Virus record (IMG/VR): IMGVR_UViG_3300031650_000001
Length of the DNA: 20,000 bases
Direction: 5' to 3' (one strand)
From: an uncultured virus (IMG/VR IMGVR_UViG_3300031650_000001)
Taxonomy: Duplodnaviria > Heunggongvirae > Uroviricota > Caudoviricetes
Part shown: positions 1,724 through 16,070 of the stretch, piece after piece
How positions within the stretch are numbered: the first letter of the stretch is position 1
Layout of the letters: every line of letters begins with the position of its first letter
The notes under the pieces: model-generated
Seen by the model: only the letters and a program-made list of their open reading frames with translations
The model's database searches: none
Told to the model about the DNA's origin: nothing
Translations under genes and position numbers: made by a program

Positions 1724-1948
1724 ATGGACAGCACATTGACCGAAGCCGCAAAGGCACTCGCGCGAATCCAGCGAATCGAGACCACGTACGCGAACCGTCT
1801 CACGAGACTGGACGCGGAGCGGGCCAAGAACATCACCGCGATCCTTGCCGGCGTCAGCAGCACCAAGGTACTCGACGTGATCCGCGTTGAGGACCCCCTG
1901 ATCGTCACCGAGTTCGGGCCGGTGAGCGATGACGGGGAGGAGTACTGA
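1724..1948 (+). CDS. hypothetical protein (74 aa)
   Basis: AGGAGG 1712-1717 before ATG 1724; TGATG overlap with the next gene. Confidence 0.8.
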   Translation: MDSTLTEAAKALARIQRIETTYANRLTRLDAERAKNITAILAGVSSTKVLDVIRVEDPLIVTEFGPVSDDGEEY

Positions 1949-2982
1949 TGGACCAGCCAGCAGTCAACGACGGACCGCGGAAAGCCGACCGTACCACCGA
2001 GGTCACTCACTTTCACGAAGCCGCCGAGTGGACGGGTCTCCGGATCACGGACTACGCTGCATGGTTGCACGCGCGCCGCGGCATTGTCACCGCGAGCCGG
2101 AGTGCTGCCCTGCTTGGCGAGTCACCCTTTGGTGATCCGCTCAGCGTCTACGCCGACATGGTGGCGCCGCAGCCCGTACCGGAACACGACGATCTAGCAC
2201 TCGATGACCCGCGCACATGGGGCAACGTTTTGGAGGAGCCGATCGCGCGCAAGGCCGCCGACTACTACCACTGGCAGATCATGATGGGTGGCGCCCTGCT
2301 CGTGTCCCGAAAGCATCCTCACCTCGGAGCGACCCTTGACGCGGAGATCTTGCCAGAGGGATCCGACGGTTGGCTCGTCTACGAAGGCAAGACGACAAAC
2401 GCTTGGCGCGCGCGGGATTGGGACGAAGCGAACGGTGTTCCGCCGACTCACATTCTGATCCAGGCGCAGCACCAACTCCTGGTGACTCAGGCTCCGGGCT
2501 GCGTGCTGTTCTGCCTCGCTGGCGGACAGAAACCGATCCGGGTCGACGTCGAGCCGGACGCGGAATTTCACGCGATGCTGATCGAAACCGTGGACGCATT
2601 CCTTGGCCGTGTCGTGGACTTAGACCCACCGCCCGCGACTGCGATCAGCGGTCCCGCTCTGAAGCAACTCCACCCGGAGGACGACGGCAGCACGGTCGCG
2701 CTCCCGGCCGATGCCGTCGAGTGGACCCGCGAACTCAACGCCATTGCTGAGCAGGTCAAGACACTCGACATGCGCGAGAAGGAACTCAAGAACCTACTGC
2801 GCCAGAGCATCGGGGACGCGCAGTATGGCGAGCTACCCGAAGAGGTTGCGGGCAAGGCGCGCTGGAAGTGGGGAACGACCCACGTTGCCGAGCGCACCCA
2901 ACACGTCAACGCCTACACCATGCGCGCGTTGCGTTTGGTCAAGGCGGCGAAGGAAACGAAACAACGGAGGCGCGGTGGATGA
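1948..2982 (+). CDS. YqaJ-like viral recombinase / lambda-exonuclease family 5'-3' exonuclease
   Basis: Motifs WLHARRGIVTAS, WGNVLEEPIA, GATLDA, YEGKT and IQAQHQL, followed by a C-terminal coiled coil. Confidence 0.9.
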   Translation: MDQPAVNDGPRKADRTTEVTHFHEAAEWTGLRITDYAAWLHARRGIVTASRSAALLGESPFGDPLSVYADMVAPQPVPEHDDLALDDPRTWGNVLEEPIARKAADYYHWQIMMGGALLVSRKHPHLGATLDAEILPEGSDGWLVYEGKTTNAWRARDWDEANGVPPTHILIQAQHQLLVTQAPGCVLFCLAGGQKPIRVDVEPDAEFHAMLIETVDAFLGRVVDLDPPPATAISGPALKQLHPEDDGSTVALPADAVEWTRELNAIAEQVKTLDMREKELKNLLRQSIGDAQYGELPEEVAGKARWKWGTTHVAERTQHVNAYTMRALRLVKAAKETKQRRRGG

Positions 2983-3161
2983 GCACACCGGCGTACGGAA
3001 TCAAACACTGGTGGCGCGCGGAACGGCGCGAAGGCGAAAGTCTGAAAGCATTCGCGCGCCGCTTTCTCCACCGACAACGACCCGGCTCCACTGAAATCAA
3101 AGGGACAGCGAACATCTGGCTAGCCCGCAAGGCAGCCCAAAAACGGAGGCACCGAGTATGA
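2979..3161 (+). CDS. small basic hypothetical protein (60 aa)
   Basis: ATGA overlaps at both ends; GGAGG upstream. Confidence 0.65.
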   Translation: MSTPAYGIKHWWRAERREGESLKAFARRFLHRQRPGSTEIKGTANIWLARKAAQKRRHRV

Positions 3162-4111
3162 CCCAAGCAGAAAACAACGCATCGATCGTGAAAGAGAACT
3201 TTGGCAGCACCGAACTGGAGGTGCGGCACGAGACCGCCGCCGGTGCGGTTGCCGCCCGTGCACGCGCCGAAGTCGAGGCCCGTTTCATCATGGCGATCAA
3301 GCGGCCGCGAAACATGGACGTGGTCCGCACCCGACTCCTGCATGAGTGCGAGCGCCCGGGGTTCGCGGAGGCTGCCCGGTATCACAAGCCGGTCGGCAAC
3401 GGAATCGAGGGCCCGTCGATCCGATTCGCGGAAGCCGCGATCCGGAACATGACCAACCTCGATGTCCAGTCACACACGACGTACGACGATCCGACCAAGC
3501 AGATCCTGTGCGTCACCGTGACCGACCTCGAATCCAACGCGACCTACTCGCAGGACGTCACGGTGCAGAAGACGGTCGAGCGCAACTCACTCGGGCGCGG
3601 GCAGAAGCCGCTCGGTCAGCGCACGAACTCGCGCGGTCAAACCGTCTACATCGTGCCAGCCACCGACGATGACATCCTGAACAAGACCAATGCGCTGATC
3701 TCCAAGGCGGTTCGCACGCTGGGGCTCCGACACCTTCCTGGTGACATCCTCGACGAGTGCATGGATCGGTGCATCGCCGTCACGAAGAAACGCGCCAAGG
3801 ACGACCCCGATCGGGAGCGCCTCAATCTGATCGATGCGTTCTTCGGAATCGGTGTCGAGCCTGACCAACTCGCGCGCTACATCGGCCACGACCCGAAGCA
3901 CCTGAACGAGTCGGAGCTACTGGAACTCCGCGCCGTCTACGCCACTGTGAAGCAGGGCGAGGCAACATGGGCGGAACTCCTGGAGCACAAGACCGGAACG
4001 CCAGTTGATGCCGCGGACAACGAGGCCGAAGCCAAGCGCCGCAGCGCAACGGCGGCCCTCGTCGAGAAGCAGAAGGCAAAGCAGGCGGAGAAGTCCAAGG
4101 GCAAGGACTGA
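3158..4111 (+). CDS. putative ssDNA-annealing recombinase (RecT-like) partnered with the exonuclease
   Basis: GGAGG RBS; follows the YqaJ gene; motifs ARAEVEARFIMAIKRPR and EGPSIRFAEAAIRNMTN recall, from memory, the Halo gp43-type phage annealases. Confidence 0.65.
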   Translation: MTQAENNASIVKENFGSTELEVRHETAAGAVAARARAEVEARFIMAIKRPRNMDVVRTRLLHECERPGFAEAARYHKPVGNGIEGPSIRFAEAAIRNMTNLDVQSHTTYDDPTKQILCVTVTDLESNATYSQDVTVQKTVERNSLGRGQKPLGQRTNSRGQTVYIVPATDDDILNKTNALISKAVRTLGLRHLPGDILDECMDRCIAVTKKRAKDDPDRERLNLIDAFFGIGVEPDQLARYIGHDPKHLNESELLELRAVYATVKQGEATWAELLEHKTGTPVDAADNEAEAKRRSATAALVEKQKAKQAEKSKGKD

Positions 4112-7120: not shown

Positions 7121-7353
7121 CGTTTTCAGACCAGTTGCACGCTATCGTCGCACGCCGTCTCCGAAACTTGATGCGTCATCAGGAGCGGTACGTCTCCGCA
7201 TGGATCGCCGCCACCGGGGTCCACCCCTGTGACGCCGTACTTTGCCACCGGACCGAGATGCGCGGAACCACAATGGTGGACACGTTTTGGGTGGAAAGGT
7301 TGGAGACACAAACGCAAAAACCCCGCCAGTCCGAAGACCAGCGGGGTCGTTGA
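7117..7353 (+). CDS. hypothetical protein (78 aa), last gene of the left operon
   Basis: GGAGG RBS and GTGA overlap; 3' end overlaps the terminator hairpin. Confidence 0.6.
   Translation: MTFSDQLHAIVARRLRNLMRHQERYVSAWIAATGVHPCDAVLCHRTEMRGTTMVDTFWVERLETQTQKPRQSEDQRGR
7311..7347 (-). terminator. intrinsic terminator of the late (-) operon
   Basis: Minus strand reads CCCCGCTGGTC-TTCG-GACTGGCGGGG-TTTTTGCGTT (stem, C-UUCG-G loop, U tract), about 30 nt after the stop at 7375. Confidence 0.9.
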
Positions 7354-7374: not shown

Positions 7375-7839
7375 CTAGCGATTGTGCATCGGAGCCGCTT
7401 GCGCCGGCGGTGACTCAGCCGCCATCGTGATCGCGTACGTTGCCGCAGCCGTTCCGATCATGGCGCCGAGGACGATCCCGATCGTGCGCGCCGTCGTCGA
7501 ATCGAGCCAGCGATGCCGGCGCGATCGTGGTGCCAGCGAGTGTCCGTCGGAGTCATTGCGCAGGGCCCGCTTCATGGCATCGATCCGTTGCTGCTCGGTG
7601 ATCGCCTCGCGCCGTTGCGTGTTGTCCGGGTCGTGGTTGATTGTGCACCGGGTTTCGAGGACCCCAAGCCGCTCCTTGACGCCCTTGTATCCGGGCCCGC
7701 CGTTGATCTCCAGCCGGATTTCCTTGGCTACTTTGTGCGCCGCGGCGGCAGCGTTGGCGGCATCCTGGGCGGCCTTGAGCGTTGGAGCAACGGCGGACTC
7801 GATCAATCCCGTGAACTCTTGGCGATCGGCTGGGTTCAT
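7375..7839 (-). CDS. lysis-region membrane protein (154 aa; helical body, single C-terminal TM)
   Basis: ATG overlaps the GH25 stop; hydrophobic IGIVLGAMIGTAAATYAITMAA. Confidence 0.7.
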   Translation of the reverse strand: MNPADRQEFTGLIESAVAPTLKAAQDAANAAAAAHKVAKEIRLEINGGPGYKGVKERLGVLETRCTINHDPDNTQRREAITEQQRIDAMKRALRNDSDGHSLAPRSRRHRWLDSTTARTIGIVLGAMIGTAAATYAITMAAESPPAQAAPMHNR

Positions 7840-8549
7840 TGCTGGGGGTTCCTGACGGATGTGTCGATGGTGAGAGCGGTGATGTCTTCGATGCGTTCCA
7901 CTTCCCCCCGCGTTAGCCCCAACGGTCCCGGCTCCGGAACGAGGACTAGACTGTCGGCTAGATCCTGATCGATCGGCGCCCCATGCGTACCCGGGAGCGG
8001 ACCCACCTTGTTCTGCCAGATCAGGGCGTCGTTGTCGCCTGGCGTCGCCGGCTCCTTCACTCCCCAATGCGGCGTCCAAAGATGCGTGTCGAGTACCCAC
8101 TGCGGGCGGCCAAGTCGGACCCAATCGTACCGGGTGCAGTATGTCTGCGCCGCTCCGTAGTACTCCGTCAGCAGCGCGGAGAACTCCTGCGCGAGTGGAG
8201 ACCATAGCGGCGTCGGATCGCGTTGCCCTTCCGGTGCCCCCGGGTCGTGCTCAATGTCACAACTTGGGATGATGTCGCCCGGCTCGTAGCCCACCGCGTC
8301 GTCCGCCGCGGCGAATGCGTCGAACTGATCGGCAACGGATTGGTGGGCACGAAAGAAGTGATATCCGCCGACGCTCCAAGCTTCGCGGCGCGCATGCCTG
8401 ATGTGCTCGGCTGCGGCATGGTCGAAGGCGACCCCGTTCGTTAGCCGCACGATGATGAAGGTGACACCGGCTTCACTGAGCGCGGCATAGTCGAGGCCGC
8501 GGTTCCATTTGGATGCATCGATCCCAAGGCGTGCGGATGGCGCGGTCAC
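7836..8549 (-). CDS. endolysin, glycoside hydrolase family 25 muramidase
   Basis: GIDASKWN, GGYHFFR, DIE catalytic motif, LIWQ...IDQD. Confidence 0.92.
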   Translation of the reverse strand: MTAPSARLGIDASKWNRGLDYAALSEAGVTFIIVRLTNGVAFDHAAAEHIRHARREAWSVGGYHFFRAHQSVADQFDAFAAADDAVGYEPGDIIPSCDIEHDPGAPEGQRDPTPLWSPLAQEFSALLTEYYGAAQTYCTRYDWVRLGRPQWVLDTHLWTPHWGVKEPATPGDNDALIWQNKVGPLPGTHGAPIDQDLADSLVLVPEPGPLGLTRGEVERIEDITALTIDTSVRNPQQ

Positions 8550-9121
8550 GCTGCCCCCGGCGGCTCGGTGTCTGCGATCTCCAGTTCGCGCATCCGTTCG
8601 ACCGCCGCATCAAACCACGCGCTGAGATCGACGAAGTACGGGCGCTGCTTCAAGTGCGCGTAGTCTCGCAGGTCCCGCTCCTTTGCGCGCACGAGTCCAC
8701 CGGTCGTGTTGGCGTCGATGGTGAACAGCTGATGCCCGTCGCGCCGCACGAAGAGACAACCATGCTCAACGTGTGCACCGCCTTTGGAGTACGGGAAGAT
8801 CACAGCGTCGGAGAGTTGCGGATCCTTCGTTGTCGGCTCGTCACCGAAGACGCCGATGCAGTCACGCCAGACGCGGTCAGTGATGCCCTCTTCGATGAGC
8901 CAGGTCAGCAATGCGATCTGACAGTAGGACTTACCTTTTCGCGCTGCCGGCGTCGGGTAGCAGGGTGCGGCCACGTCAAAGAAGTGATCGCCACCCTTGG
9001 TGCCGACGTAGCTCTGGGCACGAGCCAGCACCCGGGCGCGGAGGTCGGCGACGGTGGGCAGGTCGAGGGGGTAAACCTCGTCGACGGGCGGTGGACTGAG
9101 TCGGTCTGGCGGCCTATTCAT
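8546..9121 (-). CDS. CHAP/NlpC-P60-like cell-wall peptidase or amidase (191 aa)
   Basis: VLARAQSYVG, YCQ (putative catalytic Cys), EHGCLF (His), TIDANT (TIEGNT-like); GAGG RBS before ATG 9121. Confidence 0.7.
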   Translation of the reverse strand: MNRPPDRLSPPPVDEVYPLDLPTVADLRARVLARAQSYVGTKGGDHFFDVAAPCYPTPAARKGKSYCQIALLTWLIEEGITDRVWRDCIGVFGDEPTTKDPQLSDAVIFPYSKGGAHVEHGCLFVRRDGHQLFTIDANTTGGLVRAKERDLRDYAHLKQRPYFVDLSAWFDAAVERMRELEIADTEPPGAA

Positions 9122-9144
9122 GCAGAAACCTCGGCAAATCCTGG

Positions 9145-9215
9145 CCAAAAACTTTTTTCGCGTGCGGTGTCGATTGTGCTGGACCGTGCCGTACAAGTGC
9201 CGTATCCTCTGATCA
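9145..9215 (+). promoter_or_regulatory. sigma70-like promoter with tandem operator driving the cassette island
   Basis: TGGACC 9180-9185, 17-nt spacer, TATCCT 9203-9208; A/T tract 9147-9158; GTGCCGTA direct repeat at 9186-9193 and 9197-9204. Confidence 0.6.
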
Positions 9216-9244
9216 TGACGACGACGGGAAACACGGAGGCCACC

Positions 9245-9505
9245 ATGAACACGACGATCACCGTTTCAGCCGAGCACGAGGGCAGCACCTACACCGCGAG
9301 CGCCGACTACGCGCACGCCAGCACGCCTAAACTGGTTCAGTTCACCCGCGATGGGGAGCCGGCTGGCCACGGGATTCTGGCCTGGCAGACGATCGACACT
9401 CGGGAGAATCGCCGTCCGACCACCGATGTCCCCGAGGATGCGATTGAGGCACTGGAGGACGCATTGCTGGCGGCCATGGGGCGTTACGCGCGCGAACACT
9501 CCTGA
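9245..9505 (+). CDS. island cassette ORF1, hypothetical (86 aa)
   Basis: GGAGG-CCACC-ATG; an in-frame ATG at 9215 coincides with the predicted transcription start. Confidence 0.8.
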   Translation: MNTTITVSAEHEGSTYTASADYAHASTPKLVQFTRDGEPAGHGILAWQTIDTRENRRPTTDVPEDAIEALEDALLAAMGRYAREHS

Positions 9506-9518
9506 GACCGCACCCCCA

Positions 9519-9560
9519 ACCCCGTCCAGCCCCGCACCGCAAGGCCGGGGCTTCGGCGGT
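9519..9560 (+). repeat. intergenic stem-loop repeat H1
   Basis: AGCCCCG-CA-CC-GCAA-GG-C-CGGGGCT with outer stem, immediately followed by AGGAGG. Confidence 0.85.
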
Positions 9561-9571
9561 AGGAGGCCACC

Positions 9572-9796
9572 ATGACGCTATTCAACCCCGACACCGACAA
9601 CCCCGGTCAGTGCAAGCACTGCAAGGCTTGGTTCACGCGCCGCGTTCCCGGCGACGAGGCTAGCAGTCGCGATCTAGAGCACCCCGAGTACTGCGCCGGA
9701 TGCGCGGGCCACTTGTTCGGAGATAGTGACCGCGGACCGACCATGGTTGTCCGCACCAATGAGAGCCACGACCCCAACGACTGGACGTTCCGCTGA
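9572..9796 (+). CDS. island cassette ORF2, putative Zn-binding protein (74 aa)
   Basis: AGGAGG RBS; CKHC...CAGC. Confidence 0.8.
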   Translation: MTLFNPDTDNPGQCKHCKAWFTRRVPGDEASSRDLEHPEYCAGCAGHLFGDSDRGPTMVVRTNESHDPNDWTFR

Positions 9797-9804
9797 AACG
9801 CCCC

Positions 9805-9850
9805 CGCCCCGTCCAGCCGCGCACCCCCACCGGGCCGCGGCTCAGGGGCG
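9805..9850 (+). repeat. intergenic stem-loop repeat H2
   Basis: AGCCGCG-CA-CCC-CCACC-GGG-C-CGCGGCT; outer CGCCCC/GGGGCG; followed by TAGGAGG. Confidence 0.85.
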
Positions 9851-9868
9851 TAGGAGGCACCGAATACC

Positions 9869-10207
9869 ATGACCGAAACCAACTACGACCCTGCCAACCT
9901 GACCCCAACCGGCGAGCTCATCTACACCGATTTCGTGGACGTCCCCGAGCTCCTGGGCTGCGACACTGCCGCGGAGTACGAGGCCGAATGCAACCTGCTC
10001 GACGACTGCTACACCCGCGGGTGTAGAGGCACGCCGTACACGATCTGGGCCCGACCGCCCTACGGTGGGGAGGCAGCTGGCGCGTACGCCGTCACGGGCA
10101 ACGACCTGCAGATCCTTGGCGGCTCGATCCCAGTGCCCGAGGACGTGGCCGAGATCATGCGCGCGGCGTGGGAGGAATACTGCGCGATGCCGAGGGACGA
10201 CGAGTAG
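9869..10207 (+). CDS. island cassette ORF3, acidic hypothetical protein (112 aa)
   Basis: AGGAGG RBS; Asp/Glu-rich. Confidence 0.8.
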   Translation: MTETNYDPANLTPTGELIYTDFVDVPELLGCDTAAEYEAECNLLDDCYTRGCRGTPYTIWARPPYGGEAAGAYAVTGNDLQILGGSIPVPEDVAEIMRAAWEEYCAMPRDDE

Positions 10208-10211
10208 ACCA

Positions 10212-10409
10212 ATGCCCGAAACCCTCACCGAACTCGCCGTGACCCTGGACAGCATCCCACCGCCTACCCGACAGCAACGCGAGGACCAGGCCCGGCGCGA
10301 TCAAGAAACCCAAGACCGGATCGACGCCTGGCACGCCAACCGCCGCTTGCACTGCCCGGAGGAGTACGACGGCAACGGCAACCATCTGCCGTTCGGGAGC
10401 TTCTGCTGA
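10212..10409 (+). CDS. island ORF4, hypothetical (65 aa)
   Basis: ATG 4 nt after the upstream TAG; stop directly precedes hairpin H3. Confidence 0.7.
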   Translation: MPETLTELAVTLDSIPPPTRQQREDQARRDQETQDRIDAWHANRRLHCPEEYDGNGNHLPFGSFC

Positions 10410-10417
10410 ACCCACCC

Positions 10418-10465
10418 CACCCCGCTCCACCCCGGCACCCGAGAGGGCCCGGGGCTGGGGCGGTG
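10418..10465 (+). repeat. intergenic stem-loop repeat H3
   Basis: CCGCTCCA-CCCCGG-CA-CCC-GAGA-GGG-C-CCGGGG-C-TGGGGCGG. Confidence 0.85.
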
Positions 10466-10501
10466 AACGACAGCAGATCTAGGATCTAGGAGGGTTTCGC
10501 C

Positions 10502-10516
10502 ATGCGATGCGGTTGA
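10502..10516 (+). other. 4-codon minigene (MRCG*) occupying a cassette slot
   Basis: AGGAGG 10488-10493, 8 nt, then ATG CGA TGC GGT TGA, directly followed by H4. Confidence 0.45.
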
Positions 10517-10519
10517 AAG

Positions 10520-10568
10520 ACCCGCCCCGTTCAGCCCGCCCGGTTTCGACTCGGCGGGCTTTCCGGGT
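10520..10568 (+). repeat. intergenic stem-loop repeat H4
   Basis: CCCCGTTC-AGCCCGCC-C-GGT-TTCG-ACT-C-GGCGGGCT-TTC-CGGGT then AGGAG. Confidence 0.8.
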
Positions 10569-10583
10569 AGGAGATAACGAACC

Positions 10584-10838
10584 ATGACCATCGACGATCG
10601 CCTAGCCGCCCAAGACGCCCCGACCGTGCGCGTGCAGCCGGCCGAAACCCTGACCCTCGGCACCGAATACCTGACCATGTGTACCGAGGCCCTCGGCTGC
10701 GAGCCGCTCACCGTCACCGACCACCGAGACGACCCCGACGCTCTGGAGTGCTACGCCGTGTGGGATCCCGAGTCCGGTGACAGCCCCGACGAGGCTGCCG
10801 AGGACGCGGTCCAGACCGTGAGGCGGTGGCAGCGATGA
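10584..10838 (+). CDS. island ORF5, highly acidic hypothetical protein (84 aa)
   Basis: AGGAG RBS; ATGA overlap with the next gene. Confidence 0.8.
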   Translation: MTIDDRLAAQDAPTVRVQPAETLTLGTEYLTMCTEALGCEPLTVTDHRDDPDALECYAVWDPESGDSPDEAAEDAVQTVRRWQR

Positions 10839-11026
10839 CCCTCCGCAAGCCCCCACCCAAGCCGGAGCCGCTGGACGGCCGGGTAGAGATTCGGGCCACG
10901 GCCGAGGAGACTCGCCGTTGGCGAATACTGGCCCGGGCCGATGGTCGGAGCCTGAGCAACTGGATCCGGGTCAAACTGAACCGGGAGACGGACCTGGTCC
11001 CGTACGGACTGGGCGACAAGCCCTAG
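10835..11026 (+). CDS. ribbon-helix-helix (Arc/CopG-like) DNA-binding protein (63 aa)
   Basis: RVEIRA strand, EETRRWRILARADG helix, RSLSNWIR second helix. Confidence 0.8.
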   Translation: MTLRKPPPKPEPLDGRVEIRATAEETRRWRILARADGRSLSNWIRVKLNRETDLVPYGLGDKP

Positions 11027-11041
11027 CCCCTAAGCCGCCCC

Positions 11042-11887
11042 CTAACGCCGTTTCGCCCCGGACGACCTAGCGCCCGCCGGACCTGCCCAGAGGACGACAG
11101 CCGGCGGCACAGGGGCGGGACCGGGGAGACCCACGGGACCGGCGTCCAGTGCGCTGGCGTTCAGGGATGGGGCGGAGGGCCGGGACATGATGCGCAGCTC
11201 GAGAGCTATCAGCGCGTCGCCGTGCAATCCTCTGCCGATGCCTCGCCATGCCCTGTGGTAGGTAGCGAGGCGGGCAGTCACCCAGGACTGCTCAACCAAA
11301 TCGCACCGAGACCCGGATCCGTAGCTGGAAATAGCACTGGCAAACCACTTGCCGCCATGTGATCGGCAGCGGCATCGGGCACGGGTCAGCAGGATCGCCC
11401 CGGCACGGTAGCAGCGCTCCAAAGCGTCGGTTCCACCCACTAGGTCATCGAGCCGGTACCCGGTGACTCCAACCGAATCCGGGTGGATCTGGACCGAGCA
11501 AACCTCGCCCGCTGCCCCGCGGAGCTCTCCCGTCTCCACCACTGACCATAGGCCAGATTCGTGCCGAGCGATGGTGGCGAGCGTAGCCACCATCTCAGCT
11601 GTAGAGCCACCCCACGATGGCGGCGGGTCGACGGCTACGCTGGCAATGGCCTCGGCGTGCAGGACGTAGCGCGAGAGCCCCTCTGCCCTGGTTTCCGCCC
11701 TGGTCCAGCCAAGCCAGGACGCTCCGCGGGACGAGTAATCTAGTCTCGGTGCCCACAGATCACCCGATGGCGCCCACTGCCGCACCTCCGGATACGAGGG
11801 TACGCGGCTCATGTCCGTCACCCCGGGATGCGCTATCGCCAGGATCGCCTCTAGCGCGAGGCGAATCGTCCCACCAAGACAAGCCAT
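11042..11887 (-). CDS. lysozyme-fold / lytic transglycosylase-like protein
   Basis: IARHESG (catalytic ES), CSVQI (GxxQ-like), AISSYGSG (AYNAG-like); start position uncertain. Confidence 0.65.
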   Translation of the reverse strand: MACLGGTIRLALEAILAIAHPGVTDMSRVPSYPEVRQWAPSGDLWAPRLDYSSRGASWLGWTRAETRAEGLSRYVLHAEAIASVAVDPPPSWGGSTAEMVATLATIARHESGLWSVVETGELRGAAGEVCSVQIHPDSVGVTGYRLDDLVGGTDALERCYRAGAILLTRARCRCRSHGGKWFASAISSYGSGSRCDLVEQSWVTARLATYHRAWRGIGRGLHGDALIALELRIMSRPSAPSLNASALDAGPVGLPGPAPVPPAVVLWAGPAGARSSGAKRR

Positions 11888-12116
11888 TCGCGGACCCTAA
11901 CACAGGGGCGGAGCGGCGCAGATATCCGAGCGTCCCCGGTCCCGCTGCGCCATCGGGGGAGTCTGCGGATCCGGCCGTATAGGGCCGGACATTCCCAGGG
12001 CAAGGGTGATCTGTATTTGGCCCGGTCTAAGGCGGAACCGGTACACAAATGCCGCGATTTGCCGCGGGCGTGACCGATCTGCTGAGGGCCCCGGTCTAAG
12101 CGAGCGGCCGGACAAC

Positions 12117-12145
12117 TTGACCCCGGCCGGCCAGTGCCTTAGACT
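12117..12145 (+). promoter_or_regulatory. sigma70-like promoter for the zinc-finger gene
   Basis: TTGACC 12117-12122, 17-nt spacer, TAGACT 12140-12145. Confidence 0.7.
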
Positions 12146-12166
12146 AGTGGCGTGAGGTTGCTCAAG

Positions 12167-12415
12167 ATGAACCCGACCCGACAGCCGCCACCGGCCCCGA
12201 CCGTGCTCTGCGATGAGTGCGGTTCGGCCATGGTGCTGTCGGTGGGGCCCGGGCGCATGCGGGACTACCGCGGCCGGTCCGGGTACGAACTCCCGGCCGA
12301 TCTCGCTTTCCCACGGTGCCCCGAGTGCGGAGCCGAGTGGATGACGTCGTCGCAAATCGACCGGCTGTCGGAGCACCTCGAACGGCAGCGGCGTCGGCGG
12401 ATCAGGGCGATCTAA
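12167..12415 (+). CDS. stand-alone YgiT/MqsA-type zinc-finger protein (82 aa)
   Basis: CDECGSAMV...DYRG...RCPECGAEWMT; GAGG RBS; no HTH domain. Confidence 0.7.
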   Translation: MNPTRQPPPAPTVLCDECGSAMVLSVGPGRMRDYRGRSGYELPADLAFPRCPECGAEWMTSSQIDRLSEHLERQRRRRIRAI

Positions 12416-13152
12416 CCCCGCCGCAACGCCTGCGCATCCGCGATCAGTTGTGCGGTGTCGCACATGCTCGGGGAGAGGTCGTCGGGTCCGGTCCAGTCGT
12501 ACCGCGGGACCAGGACGTACGCCTCGTCTAGAAATTTTGCGGCGAACTGATGAGTCATCTGCTGCCGGCGCGCCCACGTGATACACTCCCATACGTGCGC
12601 CGATCGTCGGACCAGAATCGAAGCATGTCCGCCCCAACCTCCGGCGGCTCCACTCGTATCGGCCCAGATCGATTCATGCTTGGCACTCAGCGGCAGCCGG
12701 AGCCCGCAATAAATCGCTCCGAAGATATCCAGCGCCCGCATCATCGTTGGGATGTCGTCCGGGTCGATCTCCGCGAACGCTTCGCCCACGTGACCGCCGA
12801 TGCCTTCACTGCAATACAGTTTCGCCGCGTCGAGCATGTACGCGCCGCGGTCCGTCTCGGGACGGGTCGGGTCGTAGCCGCTGATCTTGCTGTAGGCAGC
12901 GAGGACCTCCGAGGTCTTCAGCATTGACGGGTGGCCGTCATTGGCTGAGCAGGAAATGATGCTGTGCCCAATCGCTGTGCACGTGCAGCAACCTACGTCC
13001 AGATTTCCTAGAGACGGCCAAGCCGGAACTGCTTCCGCCCAGGACTTGGTCAAGCCAACTGGGCGCTGCTTCGTTGGCAGGTAGTTGACCAGCTTCAGGT
13101 TCCGCGCGTCCTCTTTCTTCGGGAGCTTCCCGCAGCATCCGATCGCGGTCAT
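12412..13152 (-). CDS. papain-like cysteine peptidase (246 aa)
   Basis: GNLDVGCCTC (Cys), GGHASIL (His), CITWA; ATGA coupling with the upstream lipoprotein gene. Confidence 0.7.
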   Translation of the reverse strand: MTAIGCCGKLPKKEDARNLKLVNYLPTKQRPVGLTKSWAEAVPAWPSLGNLDVGCCTCTAIGHSIISCSANDGHPSMLKTSEVLAAYSKISGYDPTRPETDRGAYMLDAAKLYCSEGIGGHVGEAFAEIDPDDIPTMMRALDIFGAIYCGLRLPLSAKHESIWADTSGAAGGWGGHASILVRRSAHVWECITWARRQQMTHQFAAKFLDEAYVLVPRYDWTGPDDLSPSMCDTAQLIADAQALRRG

Positions 13153-14281: not shown

Positions 14282-14670
14282 GGCTTTCCTGCTTTCTCTT
14301 TCGCTATGTCCGGAACCACGTCCGGAACCACGGGCTTGTCCTCGATCACTTTCGCCCGTGCCCACGCCACGGTCAGCGCGGATCGTTCCAGCGCGGTCAG
14401 TGCCTTTGCCGTCGGCGGTCCCGGCGCCAGTTCGGCTTTGATGAGCGCGTCCTCAAGCGGGTCCACGGTCACGCCGTCCTTGTCCTCGCCGGTGTGAGCG
14501 GTGACGGTGACAGCGATGTGCCGACCACCTCCACGCCACTCGGCTCGGGTCAGTCCAACGGTGCGAGGGTAGACCTGTCCCGGGTGATTCGCCGCGAGCA
14601 ACTTGTCCCGCATGGCCTTGTATTCGGCCCGTTCCGCTGGCGTTCCGGGAATGACTTTGCGCGCGATCAT
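14278..14670 (-). CDS. hypothetical protein (130 aa)
   Basis: ATGA overlaps at both ends. Confidence 0.75.
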   Translation of the reverse strand: MIARKVIPGTPAERAEYKAMRDKLLAANHPGQVYPRTVGLTRAEWRGGGRHIAVTVTAHTGEDKDGVTVDPLEDALIKAELAPGPPTAKALTALERSALTVAWARAKVIEDKPVVPDVVPDIAKEKAGKP

Positions 14671-16070
14671 GGGTTGCGCCCGAGGCTGTAGAGATAGGCG
14701 ATTTCGGCGGCGGTCGCGGCGTGGGGGAGCTGGTGAAAATCGCTGATGTCACAATTGGCGTGATTCGCGTCGGTGCCGTTGTTGTTGTGCGCGTACAAAT
14801 AGCAGTCAGCGGTTGACAGTGTCTCAGTGAACGCGCCTGAACTCGCCGCGGTCCCGTCAATTGTGATGATGATGCCTGTGGTCGTGAACGTCACGGTTAC
14901 GTGCGACCACACACCAGCGGTCAGCGTTGCCGTGCTGTCAAAAGTCGCGTTACCGCCACCGGTTCCGGCAACCGCGCGAACCTTTCCATTCGTCTGAACT
15001 TGCACGTAGCAAGCATTGCTGCTGCCGTCGATCGATCCCCAGAGTGAATACGCAGCCAGCAGATCCGTCACCCGCACCCAAACGTCAAACGTGCAACCGG
15101 TCGCATTTGGGGCCGTACCCAAGTCGAGGTATTGGCTGCTCGCCGCAGCGGCGTTGACTAGGTCATTTGCCTGGTCGTGTGTCGGCGCGGTCCCCGCCGT
15201 AGCGTCGTTCCCACACCCGCATTTGTCCGCCCAAGTAGTAACGTCCCCGCCGGCAGTCGCAACCGTCGAGTCGTCGGCAGCGTCAAGCCAAATACCAGTT
15301 ACGCCGTGTGGCACGACCAGCGGAAGAGTATCTGCCCAGCGGGTGGGGAACTTCGCAGCTCGTGCGGCGCGGGACTCGAAGATCTCGGTGGTGGTCTGGA
15401 GGGAATCGCGACCCCAGGCGGCTTGGAACGCCCCGTCAAAAAAGTTGGTAGACTGATCGTAATATCCACCCAGTGATGTGGCCCCTCCCATGCTACAAGT
15501 GACGGGATAGGCGGCAGACCCGATGTGTACCCCGTTGCGGTATGCGGATGCAGTGGTGGTAGCAAAATCCAAATGAAATTCTAGTGACTGTTCCCCGGTG
15601 GTGGCAGAGCCCAAATTCAGTAAACCGGATGTATATGCGGCAACTTGACCAACGTTGGTGTGGGAATAGAGGACAAGCCTGCCCGTCTGAAAATCGATGA
15701 GGTAATCGTGACTTCCGGTAGCATCGTCAGCATCGATGTCAAACCAGAACGAGTGGCTCGTGCCCGCTGGCCATCCCGCACCCTCCGCAAGCCCGTAGCA
15801 GTCCGCGGTTCCGTCCACCGCGATCTCCGCGTTGCCGTCCGCATCTGCACCCACGGTCCCCTGCTTGGCGTCGGTGTTCTGCACCGCATGGTGTCCGTTG
15901 CCACTCAGGTCCACCAGCAAGCGCGCCTGGTCCCCAGCTTCGGCATTCGCTGGATCCGTCTCGTGCACCGCTGCATCAAACCAGAACGTGGGCGCCTGCT
16001 GGTAGTGCACGCTCAGCGCCAGCGATGGCCGCGCGAGGCCGCAACGACGGAGCAGGTCAATTAATCGCAT
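14667..16070 (-). CDS. virion/tail-associated protein with two LamG/concanavalin-A-like domains
   Basis: WFDAA...DLSGNGHHAVQ and WLDAAD...WADKCGCGNDA; TFDVWVR, WSHVTVT...IDG. Confidence 0.8.
   Translation of the reverse strand: MRLIDLLRRCGLARPSLALSVHYQQAPTFWFDAAVHETDPANAEAGDQARLLVDLSGNGHHAVQNTDAKQGTVGADADGNAEIAVDGTADCYGLAEGAGWPAGTSHSFWFDIDADDATGSHDYLIDFQTGRLVLYSHTNVGQVAAYTSGLLNLGSATTGEQSLEFHLDFATTTASAYRNGVHIGSAAYPVTCSMGGATSLGGYYDQSTNFFDGAFQAAWGRDSLQTTTEIFESRAARAAKFPTRWADTLPLVVPHGVTGIWLDAADDSTVATAGGDVTTWADKCGCGNDATAGTAPTHDQANDLVNAAAASSQYLDLGTAPNATGCTFDVWVRVTDLLAAYSLWGSIDGSSNACYVQVQTNGKVRAVAGTGGGNATFDSTATLTAGVWSHVTVTFTTTGIIITIDGTAASSGAFTETLSTADCYLYAHNNNGTDANHANCDISDFHQLPHAATAAEIAYLYSLGRNP

Follow-up and report, generated by a model that had tools for sequence, protein, structure and literature searches.

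An intercistronic hairpin and ribosome-binding repeat at small-gene cassette junctions of an uncultured Caudoviricetes virus

The RNase III sites of the T7 and SP82 early mRNAs are interrupted intercistronic hairpins in which a conserved internal-loop region is combined with a variable distal stem. In T4-type phages, promoter early stem-loops (PeSLs) are described as stem-loops that end in a Shine-Dalgarno sequence and lie among small genes of unknown function (PMC2839356); the same account and a second one present them as recombination points at which small genes are shuffled, and as carriers of a strong sigma-70 early promoter and an AT-rich stretch, each cassette forming its own transcription unit (PMC2839356, PMC4122927). 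The start-associated sequences (SAS) and extended SAS (ESAS) reported for Cluster K mycobacteriophages and Cluster EF Microbacterium phages are conserved asymmetric motifs that overlap the ribosome-binding site (RBS) shortly ahead of the start codon. They are found in one orientation at non-structural genes with unusually long gaps, and in many cases an imperfect inverted repeat, its spacer variable, lies ahead of them; the authors found RNA pairing unsupported by the departures in the ESAS arms and favoured DNA-binding proteins (PMC3203893, PMC7302621). Here we describe a further arrangement in a stretch of 20,000 nucleotides (nt) from an uncultured Caudoviricetes virus (IMG/VR record IMGVR_UViG_3300031650_000001), the whole of which we call the window. 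Between the small genes of a rightward operon it carries four copies, H1 to H4, of a previously uncatalogued repeat family, the kind of which is known, namely a terminator-like intercistronic hairpin joined to an RBS at cassette junctions. The first-pass annotation of this DNA, made from the letters alone, had proposed a candidate new structured RNA motif; a real, uncatalogued repeat that appears to be under RNA selection is indeed present, but its novelty does not extend to the kind of element.

The operon runs in the order promoter-like site, gene A, H1, gene B, H2, genes C and D, H3, a mini open reading frame (mini-ORF), H4, genes E and F, with no element in the 4 nt that separate C from D (Table 1). 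On re-reading of the coordinates and folding, all four repeats lie where the first-pass annotation had placed them, and unconstrained folding reproduces the stems, the CA/C internal loop of H1–H3 and the loops GCAA, CCACC, GAGA and UUCG given there, the H2 loop being CACC in the minimum-energy fold. Each element shows the same order of parts: a stop codon, a C-rich and G-poor run ending in CCCCG, three to four unpaired bases and the main stem, which starts with AGCC and whose return strand ends with GGCU, followed by zero to two further U. The 3' part consists of a G run able to pair with CCCCG, then UAGGAGG and, 5–11 nt further on, a start codon. Above the internal loop, which in H4 is not CA/C but a 1 × 1 C/C loop, all four elements have an apical stem of 2–3 base pairs. 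H3 is the exception to the common plan, as it is without an RBS of its own; its G run is followed by other sequence and only then by a separate site and the mini-ORF.

Several dimensions of the element are kept. The total helix including the outer helix comprises about 14–18 pairs and is interrupted, the distance from stem base to loop is about one helical turn in nearly all copies, and the elements are 69–85% G+C. The G run and TAGGAG(G) are conserved in H1, H2, H4 and most relatives, 0–12 nt before the start codon. On the other side, a 25-nt direct-repeat family (D3) spans the 5' flanks of H1–H3 with identities of 100, 88 and 80%, and a 12-mer of the 5' flank is found unchanged at 9520 and at 9807 and, with a single mismatch, at 10525. 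The distance from stop codon to stem is 15–22 nt in 11 of 12 copies (19 in H3) and 28 nt in the other, a narrow range that may simply follow from tight packing of a repeat whose 5' border is fixed. H1–H4 are not chance hairpins, because their flanks are conserved, their place between stop codon and RBS is fixed, they have relatives elsewhere and their pairing covaries. Folding energies on the + strand are weakly unusual in DNA this rich in G+C (z of −1.84 for H1, −3.24 for H2, −1.33 for H3 and −2.17 for H4), and hairpin stability as a criterion was dropped, a hairpin scan of the window having shown dozens of stems with similar energy. Rfam gave no matches at gathering score in the window and none at E ≤ 1 in 9100–10700.

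Relatives of the element were found in two metagenome contigs, in five distinct viral contigs and in contigs or genomes labelled Polyangiaceae. A pattern combining the 5' flank with the RBS matched at least 120 stretches of metagenome contigs, among which one (L047) alone was similar by BLAST and another (L058) was recognised on reading; in viral contigs the same pattern gave five single matches, none with the hairpin plan. L047 holds two copies, and L058, from the same metagenome, holds a complete copy and another truncated where the contig ends; in both contigs the flanks are as in the window and the stems are different. As L047 shares with the window the promoter-like region and the N-terminus of gene E, it comes, judging by these likenesses, from a related phage. 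A 3'-flank pattern found eight viral loci, five of them distinct, all of which have a hairpin though the pattern did not require one, and 20 genome loci, where the plan is clear in two contigs of metagenome-assembled genomes (MAGs) labelled Polyangiaceae (L138 and L155) and doubtful in L154. Five gap-free copies served to build a covariance model, R1, which includes the ribosome-binding flank. It recovers H4 (E = 1.4e-14), H1 (E = 2.2e-7) and H2 (E = 0.029) and misses H3, which is without the 3' ribosome-binding part; no extra copies were found with it on the flanks of the viral loci and in three whole records. R1 has matches on four contigs of one Polyangiaceae-labelled MAG and, at E ≤ 0.001, in 5 of 121 genomes of that MAG's family (46 candidates scored per genome). 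Copy number is 1–4 per genome with 46–150 candidates scored per genome, and 1–2 per 5–10 Mb genome in the family search.

The neighbours of the genomic copies are of a recurring type. In two Polyangiaceae-labelled contigs the element directly precedes tyrosine-integrase genes (1960–3354 in L165 and 5021–6352 in L166), other genomic copies precede longer genes whose N-termini resemble those integrases, and in four contigs (L171, L172, L175 and L176) the gene that follows encodes 60–66 amino acids (aa) and is ribbon-helix-helix-like by eye. The genomic copies, by these neighbours, sit in integrated mobile elements of Polyangiaceae-labelled genomes, and therefore a myxobacterial, Polyangiaceae-type host for the window phage is plausible, though unproven. 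The hairpin of L047b (1259–1286) is identical to that of L174, a − strand hit at 1501–1560 in a Polyangiaceae-family genome, and the flanks differ, which suggests recent exchange of the element. Outside the element, the window and the other repeat-bearing contigs have essentially no protein similarity to each other. Protein searches with a 330-aa ORF upstream of H1 (8513–9505), gene C, gene E and the RecE-linked protein returned nothing useful for the repeat, and one contig that encodes a protein 52% identical to one of the window's (L007) has no element. Among catalogued phages and plasmids, DNA searches found nothing similar to the window and BLAST of the region and of single elements gave no matches or chance-level ones (E ≥ 0.2), and the H1–H4 region had no DNA or protein match among catalogued phages. 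Two of the integrase starts in Polyangiaceae-labelled contigs have little or no RBS after the U run.

The collected homologues bear out the compensatory covariation that had been claimed from the four window copies. Among the 11 closest copies 98.3% of alignment cells form standard pairs and 7 of 11 pairs have changed on both sides; for 25 hits of the model the corresponding values are 96.1% and 9 of 11. In either set the covariation score was reached by none of 500 shuffles, and partners slid by 1–3 columns were paired in 36–62% (11 copies) and 38–63% (25 copies) of cells; two base pairs are invariant in the alignments. A MAFFT alignment of 14 copies, which is not structure-aware, was kept out of the pair counts. 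Furthermore, each of 12 copies folded alone and unconstrained adopts the common plan, and one metagenome contig carries a paired insertion, a C after 9529 and a G after 9546, by which the H1 stem becomes one pair longer.

The same comparison speaks to the strand on which the structure is read. Wobble pairs (G·U or U·G) occupy 10 cells of the 25-copy alignment and point to the sense strand, because they would be A·C mismatches on the opposite one. The terminal loop is GNRA or UNCG at 15 of 24 sites in the sense direction and at 0 of 24 in the antisense direction, the GAGA loop of H3 being additional to these sites, as H3 is outside that alignment. All 20 copies that were read in context are sense to the flanking genes and stand before a start codon. 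The internal loop is C·C at 17 and CA/C at 4 of the 24 sites and is kept while the surrounding pairs change; the upper stem covaries, and conservation extends to the sequence itself in the lower stem, the lower internal loop and the flanks. Because of the covariation, the wobble cells and the sense-only GNRA and UNCG loops, the case for selection on + strand RNA structure stands, and the first-pass annotation was right to argue for it.

We then compared contigs of four other runs with positions 9100–10700 of the window. Many of these contigs match at the repeats alone (9807–9865, 10418–10460 and 9520–9536) and then diverge from the window. One joint, 9233 to 9866, leads from the leader directly to gene C, another, 9553 to 10212, from the H1 hairpin directly to gene D, and a third, 10434 to 9846, forms a chimeric element with an H3-like 5' half and an H2-like 3' half. 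Going by these alignments, the small genes differ in set and order from one related phage to another, with the repeats marking the seams, and we infer that recombination causes the junctions at repeats. The arrangement of H3, mini-ORF and H4, in which the mini-ORF stops 16 nt ahead of the H4 stem, may be the scar of a lost cassette. In the gap between the two elements (10471–10516) a short direct repeat, GATCTAGGA / TCTAGGA, lies beside the RBS and the mini-ORF; this region may be a lost-cassette remnant or a deliberate mini-ORF.

In order to place the hairpins, their 3' ends were compared with those of intrinsic terminators. With the U of the closing pair counted, the U run after the stem is 2 in H1, 1 in H2, 1 in H3 and 3 in H4, a G/C run comes next, and a terminator scan requiring at least five T in eight flagged none of the four, so that the statement that there is no real U tract is right for the window. 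The relatives in Polyangiaceae-labelled genomes have the same plan of stem, C/C loop and tetraloop, then 3–5 U counted in the same way, and look like ordinary intrinsic terminators; the further claim that the element is not of terminator type is hard to uphold beside them. Because these relatives share the hairpin plan, the most fitting view of H1–H4 is that they derive from terminators and that their U run has degenerated. Termination at them is probably inefficient, because one to three U are followed by a G/C run, the scan was negative and the four stand in series, downstream of a single conserved promoter-like region, with no promoters between them; a promoter scan of 8000–12500 found one promoter-like site, at 12117, and none in 9500–10600. 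A canonical intrinsic terminator elsewhere in the window served as an internal control (Table 1). It lies, at 7351–7305, 27 nt past the stop codon of a − strand ORF ending at 7375, and R1 matches it weakly (7318–7347, E = 0.54).

We tentatively, and with somewhat less than even confidence, read H1–H4 as a terminator-derived intercistronic module of hairpin plus RBS that serves as mRNA boundary, as standard RBS and as cassette-exchange junction. Such a module would begin about 18 nt past the upstream stop codon in the + strand mRNA of a small-gene phage operon, and its one-turn GC hairpin with a stable tetraloop cap would lead into the G run and a strong UAGGAGG for the next gene. With a U run degenerate at one to three U, most transcription would read through, and after transcription the hairpin might mark a segment boundary, that is, a barrier to 3'-to-5' decay, a possible processing point and at most a weak attenuator. 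The conserved 3' flank would give each small gene the same strong translation start, and the conserved flanks would provide the short homology at which related phages swap, lose and gain small-gene cassettes.

Several points weigh against this proposal. The role as a decay barrier is drawn by analogy with other operons, and appreciable termination may occur at H4, with CUUUC, and in the genomic relatives, which would speak for an attenuator. A plain decay barrier leaves unexplained why the internal loop is kept as C·C (17/24) or CA/C (4/24), and equally the conserved lower stem, the flanks and the one-turn upper helix. Both covariation alignments were fitted to the model structure and lean towards pairing; shared descent among the copies inflates the significance given by the shuffle controls; and the ribosome-binding flank in the model biases the orientation count and partly builds in the link to the RBS. 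Finally, the analysis covers only 20 kb of the phage.

A possible, though on balance unlikely, explanation is that H1–H4 are leaky intrinsic terminators acting as attenuators, which would produce a stepwise drop in expression along the operon, perhaps relieved by a phage antiterminator. The hairpin plan, with its GC stem, tetraloop and closing A-U pair, is that of an intrinsic terminator, the genomic relatives have their 3–5 U (closing pair included) directly after the stem, H4 itself has three, and the similarly placed stem-loops of the T4-type PeSLs are reported to be effective terminators (PMC2839356). The short U runs of the window copies, 2, 1, 1 and 3 before a G/C run, argue otherwise, since none passes the terminator scan and the phage's own canonical terminator, on the − strand, has five U. 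Moreover, four serial terminators without an intervening promoter would nearly silence genes E and F, and the conserved G run pairs with the 5' C run, which is not a feature of terminators.

Recognition of the RNA by a protein might account for parts of the element for which a plain decay barrier has no explanation. In the most elaborate form of this idea, which we regard as doubtful, phages and integrated elements in Polyangiaceae-type hosts would share H1–H4 as a dedicated RNA module. An RNase III-type nuclease or a phage RNA-binding protein would read the kept C·C or CA/C internal loop, the tetraloop-capped one-turn helix and the conserved lower stem and cut the early polycistronic message into uniform single-gene mRNAs; as DNA the module would be an exchange point too, at which small early genes are shuffled between phages, and it would be an RNA-level counterpart of the PeSL. 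The plainer proposal of the first-pass annotation, an mRNA recognition element in the form of an RNase III-type processing site or a site for a phage or host protein, seems to us improbable. If the cut fell in the lower internal loop, the upstream message would end in a hairpin and the downstream one would begin with a uniform leader. Sequence conservation in the lower stem, the lower internal loop and the flanks, beside a covarying upper stem, would suit this, as would a loop kept as C·C or CA/C at 21 of 24 sites, a distance of near one helical turn between stem base and loop and the place of the copies between cistrons early in a phage operon. The kept internal loop and the one-turn upper helix would be compatible, too, with a 5' stabiliser or a protein-bound antitermination element, which the first-pass annotation also named. 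Against it, the total helix of about 14–18 interrupted pairs is short for classical RNase III substrates, the loop sequences vary, which makes loop-specific binding unlikely, and the relatives with U runs suggest a simpler origin.

Selection might also act on the DNA, the element being a selfish or mobile hairpin repeat, akin to repetitive extragenic palindromes (REPs), bacterial interspersed mosaic elements (BIMEs) or miniature inverted-repeat transposable elements (MITEs), or a DNA recombination site, with the RNA structure as a by-product. The recurrence of the element in otherwise unrelated contigs, the identical hairpins of L047b and L174, the junctions at repeats and the copies adjoining integrase genes in Polyangiaceae-labelled contigs would all fit; yet every copy read in context is sense-oriented and directly before a start codon, and the tetraloop and wobble signatures are strand-specific. 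In addition, no target-site duplications or terminal inverted repeats were seen, although no systematic search for them was made, there are 1–2 matches per 5–10 Mb genome (46 candidates scored per genome), and no transposase or RAYT gene occurs among the ORFs scanned. We consider this origin quite improbable.

Translational coupling, in which the C-rich 5' flank hides the RBS until a ribosome terminating about 18 nt upstream melts the pairing, is very improbable and is not supported: the narrow stop-to-stem distance, the pairing of 2–5 RBS bases with upstream C's in the minimum-energy folds of most copies and the mini-ORF ending 16 nt before H4 would suit it, but in partition-function calculations on 11 copies the RBS core is already roughly half open with the native 5' flank, no less accessible than with shuffled ones (unpaired probability 0.20–0.77 against 0.33–0.59), and a 10-nt footprint mask has an inconsistent effect, raising accessibility in 6 of 11, lowering it in 3 and leaving it within 0.01 in 2. 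An integron attC-like reading was rejected: no such conserved core sites are visible, the scanned ORFs of the window include no integrase, and the loops suggest an RNA.

The surrounding DNA is phage-like, with 59–68% G+C, and the stretch is present in contigs of runs labelled salt marsh metagenome. Library scans of the ORFs identified four genes outside the operon, and the operon genes were assigned by G+C at third codon positions (GC3; Table 1); PHROG and Pfam scans placed none of genes A–F in a known family. Upstream of H1, the 330-aa ORF 8513–9505 (+) was rejected as a real gene, its 5' two-thirds being an artefact where codon-position G+C fits a − strand gene. In a GC3 frame plot 8546–9196 is a − strand ORF with a gene-like pattern, which near 9160 gives way to that of a + strand gene in the frame of ORF 8513–9505; neither ORF has homologues in the libraries searched.

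The promoter-like site at the head of the operon agrees with the consensus at 8 of 12 positions and was not flagged by the promoter scan. About 80 nt preceding the ATG at 9245, comprising the −35/−10-like pair, a conserved leader and an RBS, are common to L047, with spacing kept and surrounding DNA unlike. From this conservation the site at 9180–9208 is presumably the promoter of the small-gene operon. Window positions 9146–9250 correspond to about 320–393 of L047, and the conserved region also has an upstream TGTCGATT word and an A/T-rich stretch (9146–9160); 9146–9250 is, from its sequence features, a possible early promoter with operator. At its other end the operon converges on − strand genes starting at 11042. 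The + and − gene blocks meet at 11024–11044 with about 15 nt between their stop codons, and no terminator-like hairpin was found in this gap. A second conserved start context is seen elsewhere: two 33-nt stretches, 2950–2982 and 3129–3161, are 73% alike, immediately precede the starts at 2982 and 3158 and have the ribosome-binding context ACGGAGGC, which is also seen before gene A.

Table 1. Elements, genes and other features of the window
Feature	Position	Strand	Description
RecE/YqaJ-type exonuclease gene	1948–2982	+	library scans of ORFs
RecE-linked protein gene	3158–4111	+	library scans of ORFs
Canonical intrinsic terminator, internal control	7305–7351	−	GC stem, UUCG loop, five U; outside the repeat family
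GH25 endolysin-like gene	7836–8549	−	library scans of ORFs
Promoter-like site of small-gene operon	9180–9208	+	−35 TGGACC 9180–9185, 17-nt spacer, −10 TATCCT 9203–9208
Gene A (86 aa), first operon gene	9245–9505	+	GC3; start context shared with L047
H1	9512–9566; main hairpin 9528–9552	+	outer helix, 7 bp, CA/C loop, 2 bp, GCAA loop, one further U, G run, UAGGAGG
Gene B (74 aa)	9572–9796	+	GC3 0.79
H2	9799–9857; main hairpin 9815–9842	+	7 bp, CA/C or CAC/C loop, 3 bp, CCACC or CACC loop, no U run, G run, UAGGAGG
Gene C (112 aa)	9869–10207	+	GC3 0.87
Gene D (65 aa)	10212–10409	+	GC3 0.82
H3	10412–10470; helix 10422–10463, continuous with bulge	+	CA/C loop, 3-bp apical stem, GAGA loop
Mini-ORF (4 codons) between H3 and H4	10502–10516	+	strong RBS 10488–10494
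H4	10517–10574; main hairpin 10533–10560	+	8 bp, C/C loop, 3 bp with one G·U, UUCG loop, UU, CCGGG, UAGGAG
Gene E	10584–10838	+	GC3 0.85; N-terminus common to L047 from position 1561
Gene F, operon end	10826–11026	+	GC3 0.82
Lectin-fold virion protein gene	14667–16070	−	library scans of ORFs

If the proposed module of hairpin and RBS is correct, phages of high-GC, myxobacteria-like hosts would organise their small early genes, the likeliest to encode host-takeover or anti-defence functions, as cassettes with a reusable unit of stop codon, hairpin and RBS. The module could then serve as a marker for hypervariable gene arrays in metagenomes and, as a hairpin insulator joined to a strong RBS, as a compact natural part for high-GC hosts. 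The arrangement would have parallels in the PeSL cassettes and in SAS and ESAS, and in the present family the inverted repeat would clearly act at the RNA level. For annotation, the 330-aa ORF 8513–9505 should be dropped and the start of the operon placed at the conserved promoter-like site near 9180.

With intrinsic terminators, H1–H4 have in common a GC stem of 10–12 pairs, a GNRA or UNCG cap, a place shortly after a stop codon and A-U closure into a U run. They differ from them in that the window copies have 1–3 U, fewer than five in eight nt, before a G run and an RBS, in that four occur in series in one operon, and in that the flanks are conserved and pair with each other and the internal loop is kept. 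In geometry the window hairpins are like the T7 and SP82 RNase III sites in being interrupted, in having a conserved internal-loop region and a variable distal stem and in lying between early cistrons just before the next RBS, but their helices are shorter. The REP, BIME and MITE repeats resemble the family as short imperfect palindromes that fill gene gaps in unrelated contexts, from which the window family seems to be set apart by being sense-only in the copies read in context, tied to the RBS, low in copy number per genome searched and furnished with strand-specific RNA tetraloops. The G run and TAGGAG(G) of the family form, like SAS and ESAS, a motif at the RBS in one orientation. The SAS/ESAS consensus, however, is GGGATAGGAGCCC (Cluster K) or GGGAAAGGACCCC as against G run plus TAGGAGG without an actinophage cluster context, and in the window family the inverted repeat is always present and its arms covary (96.1% paired, 9 of 11 pairs changed on both sides).

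Intrinsic terminators, PeSLs and SAS/ESAS are the nearest described parallels. As in PeSLs, a stem-loop follows a stop codon and precedes the next Shine-Dalgarno sequence, the neighbouring genes are small and of unknown function, and cassettes are gained, lost and replaced with junctions in the repeats, for which recombination is the probable cause. Unlike PeSLs, H1–H4 are 69–85% G+C and are without a promoter (none in 9500–10600); the two have no sequence similarity, and their hosts and phages differ. Going by the features that define intrinsic terminators, PeSLs and SAS/ESAS, the element falls outside all three, and by analogy it would work most like a promoter-less PeSL built on a weakened terminator.

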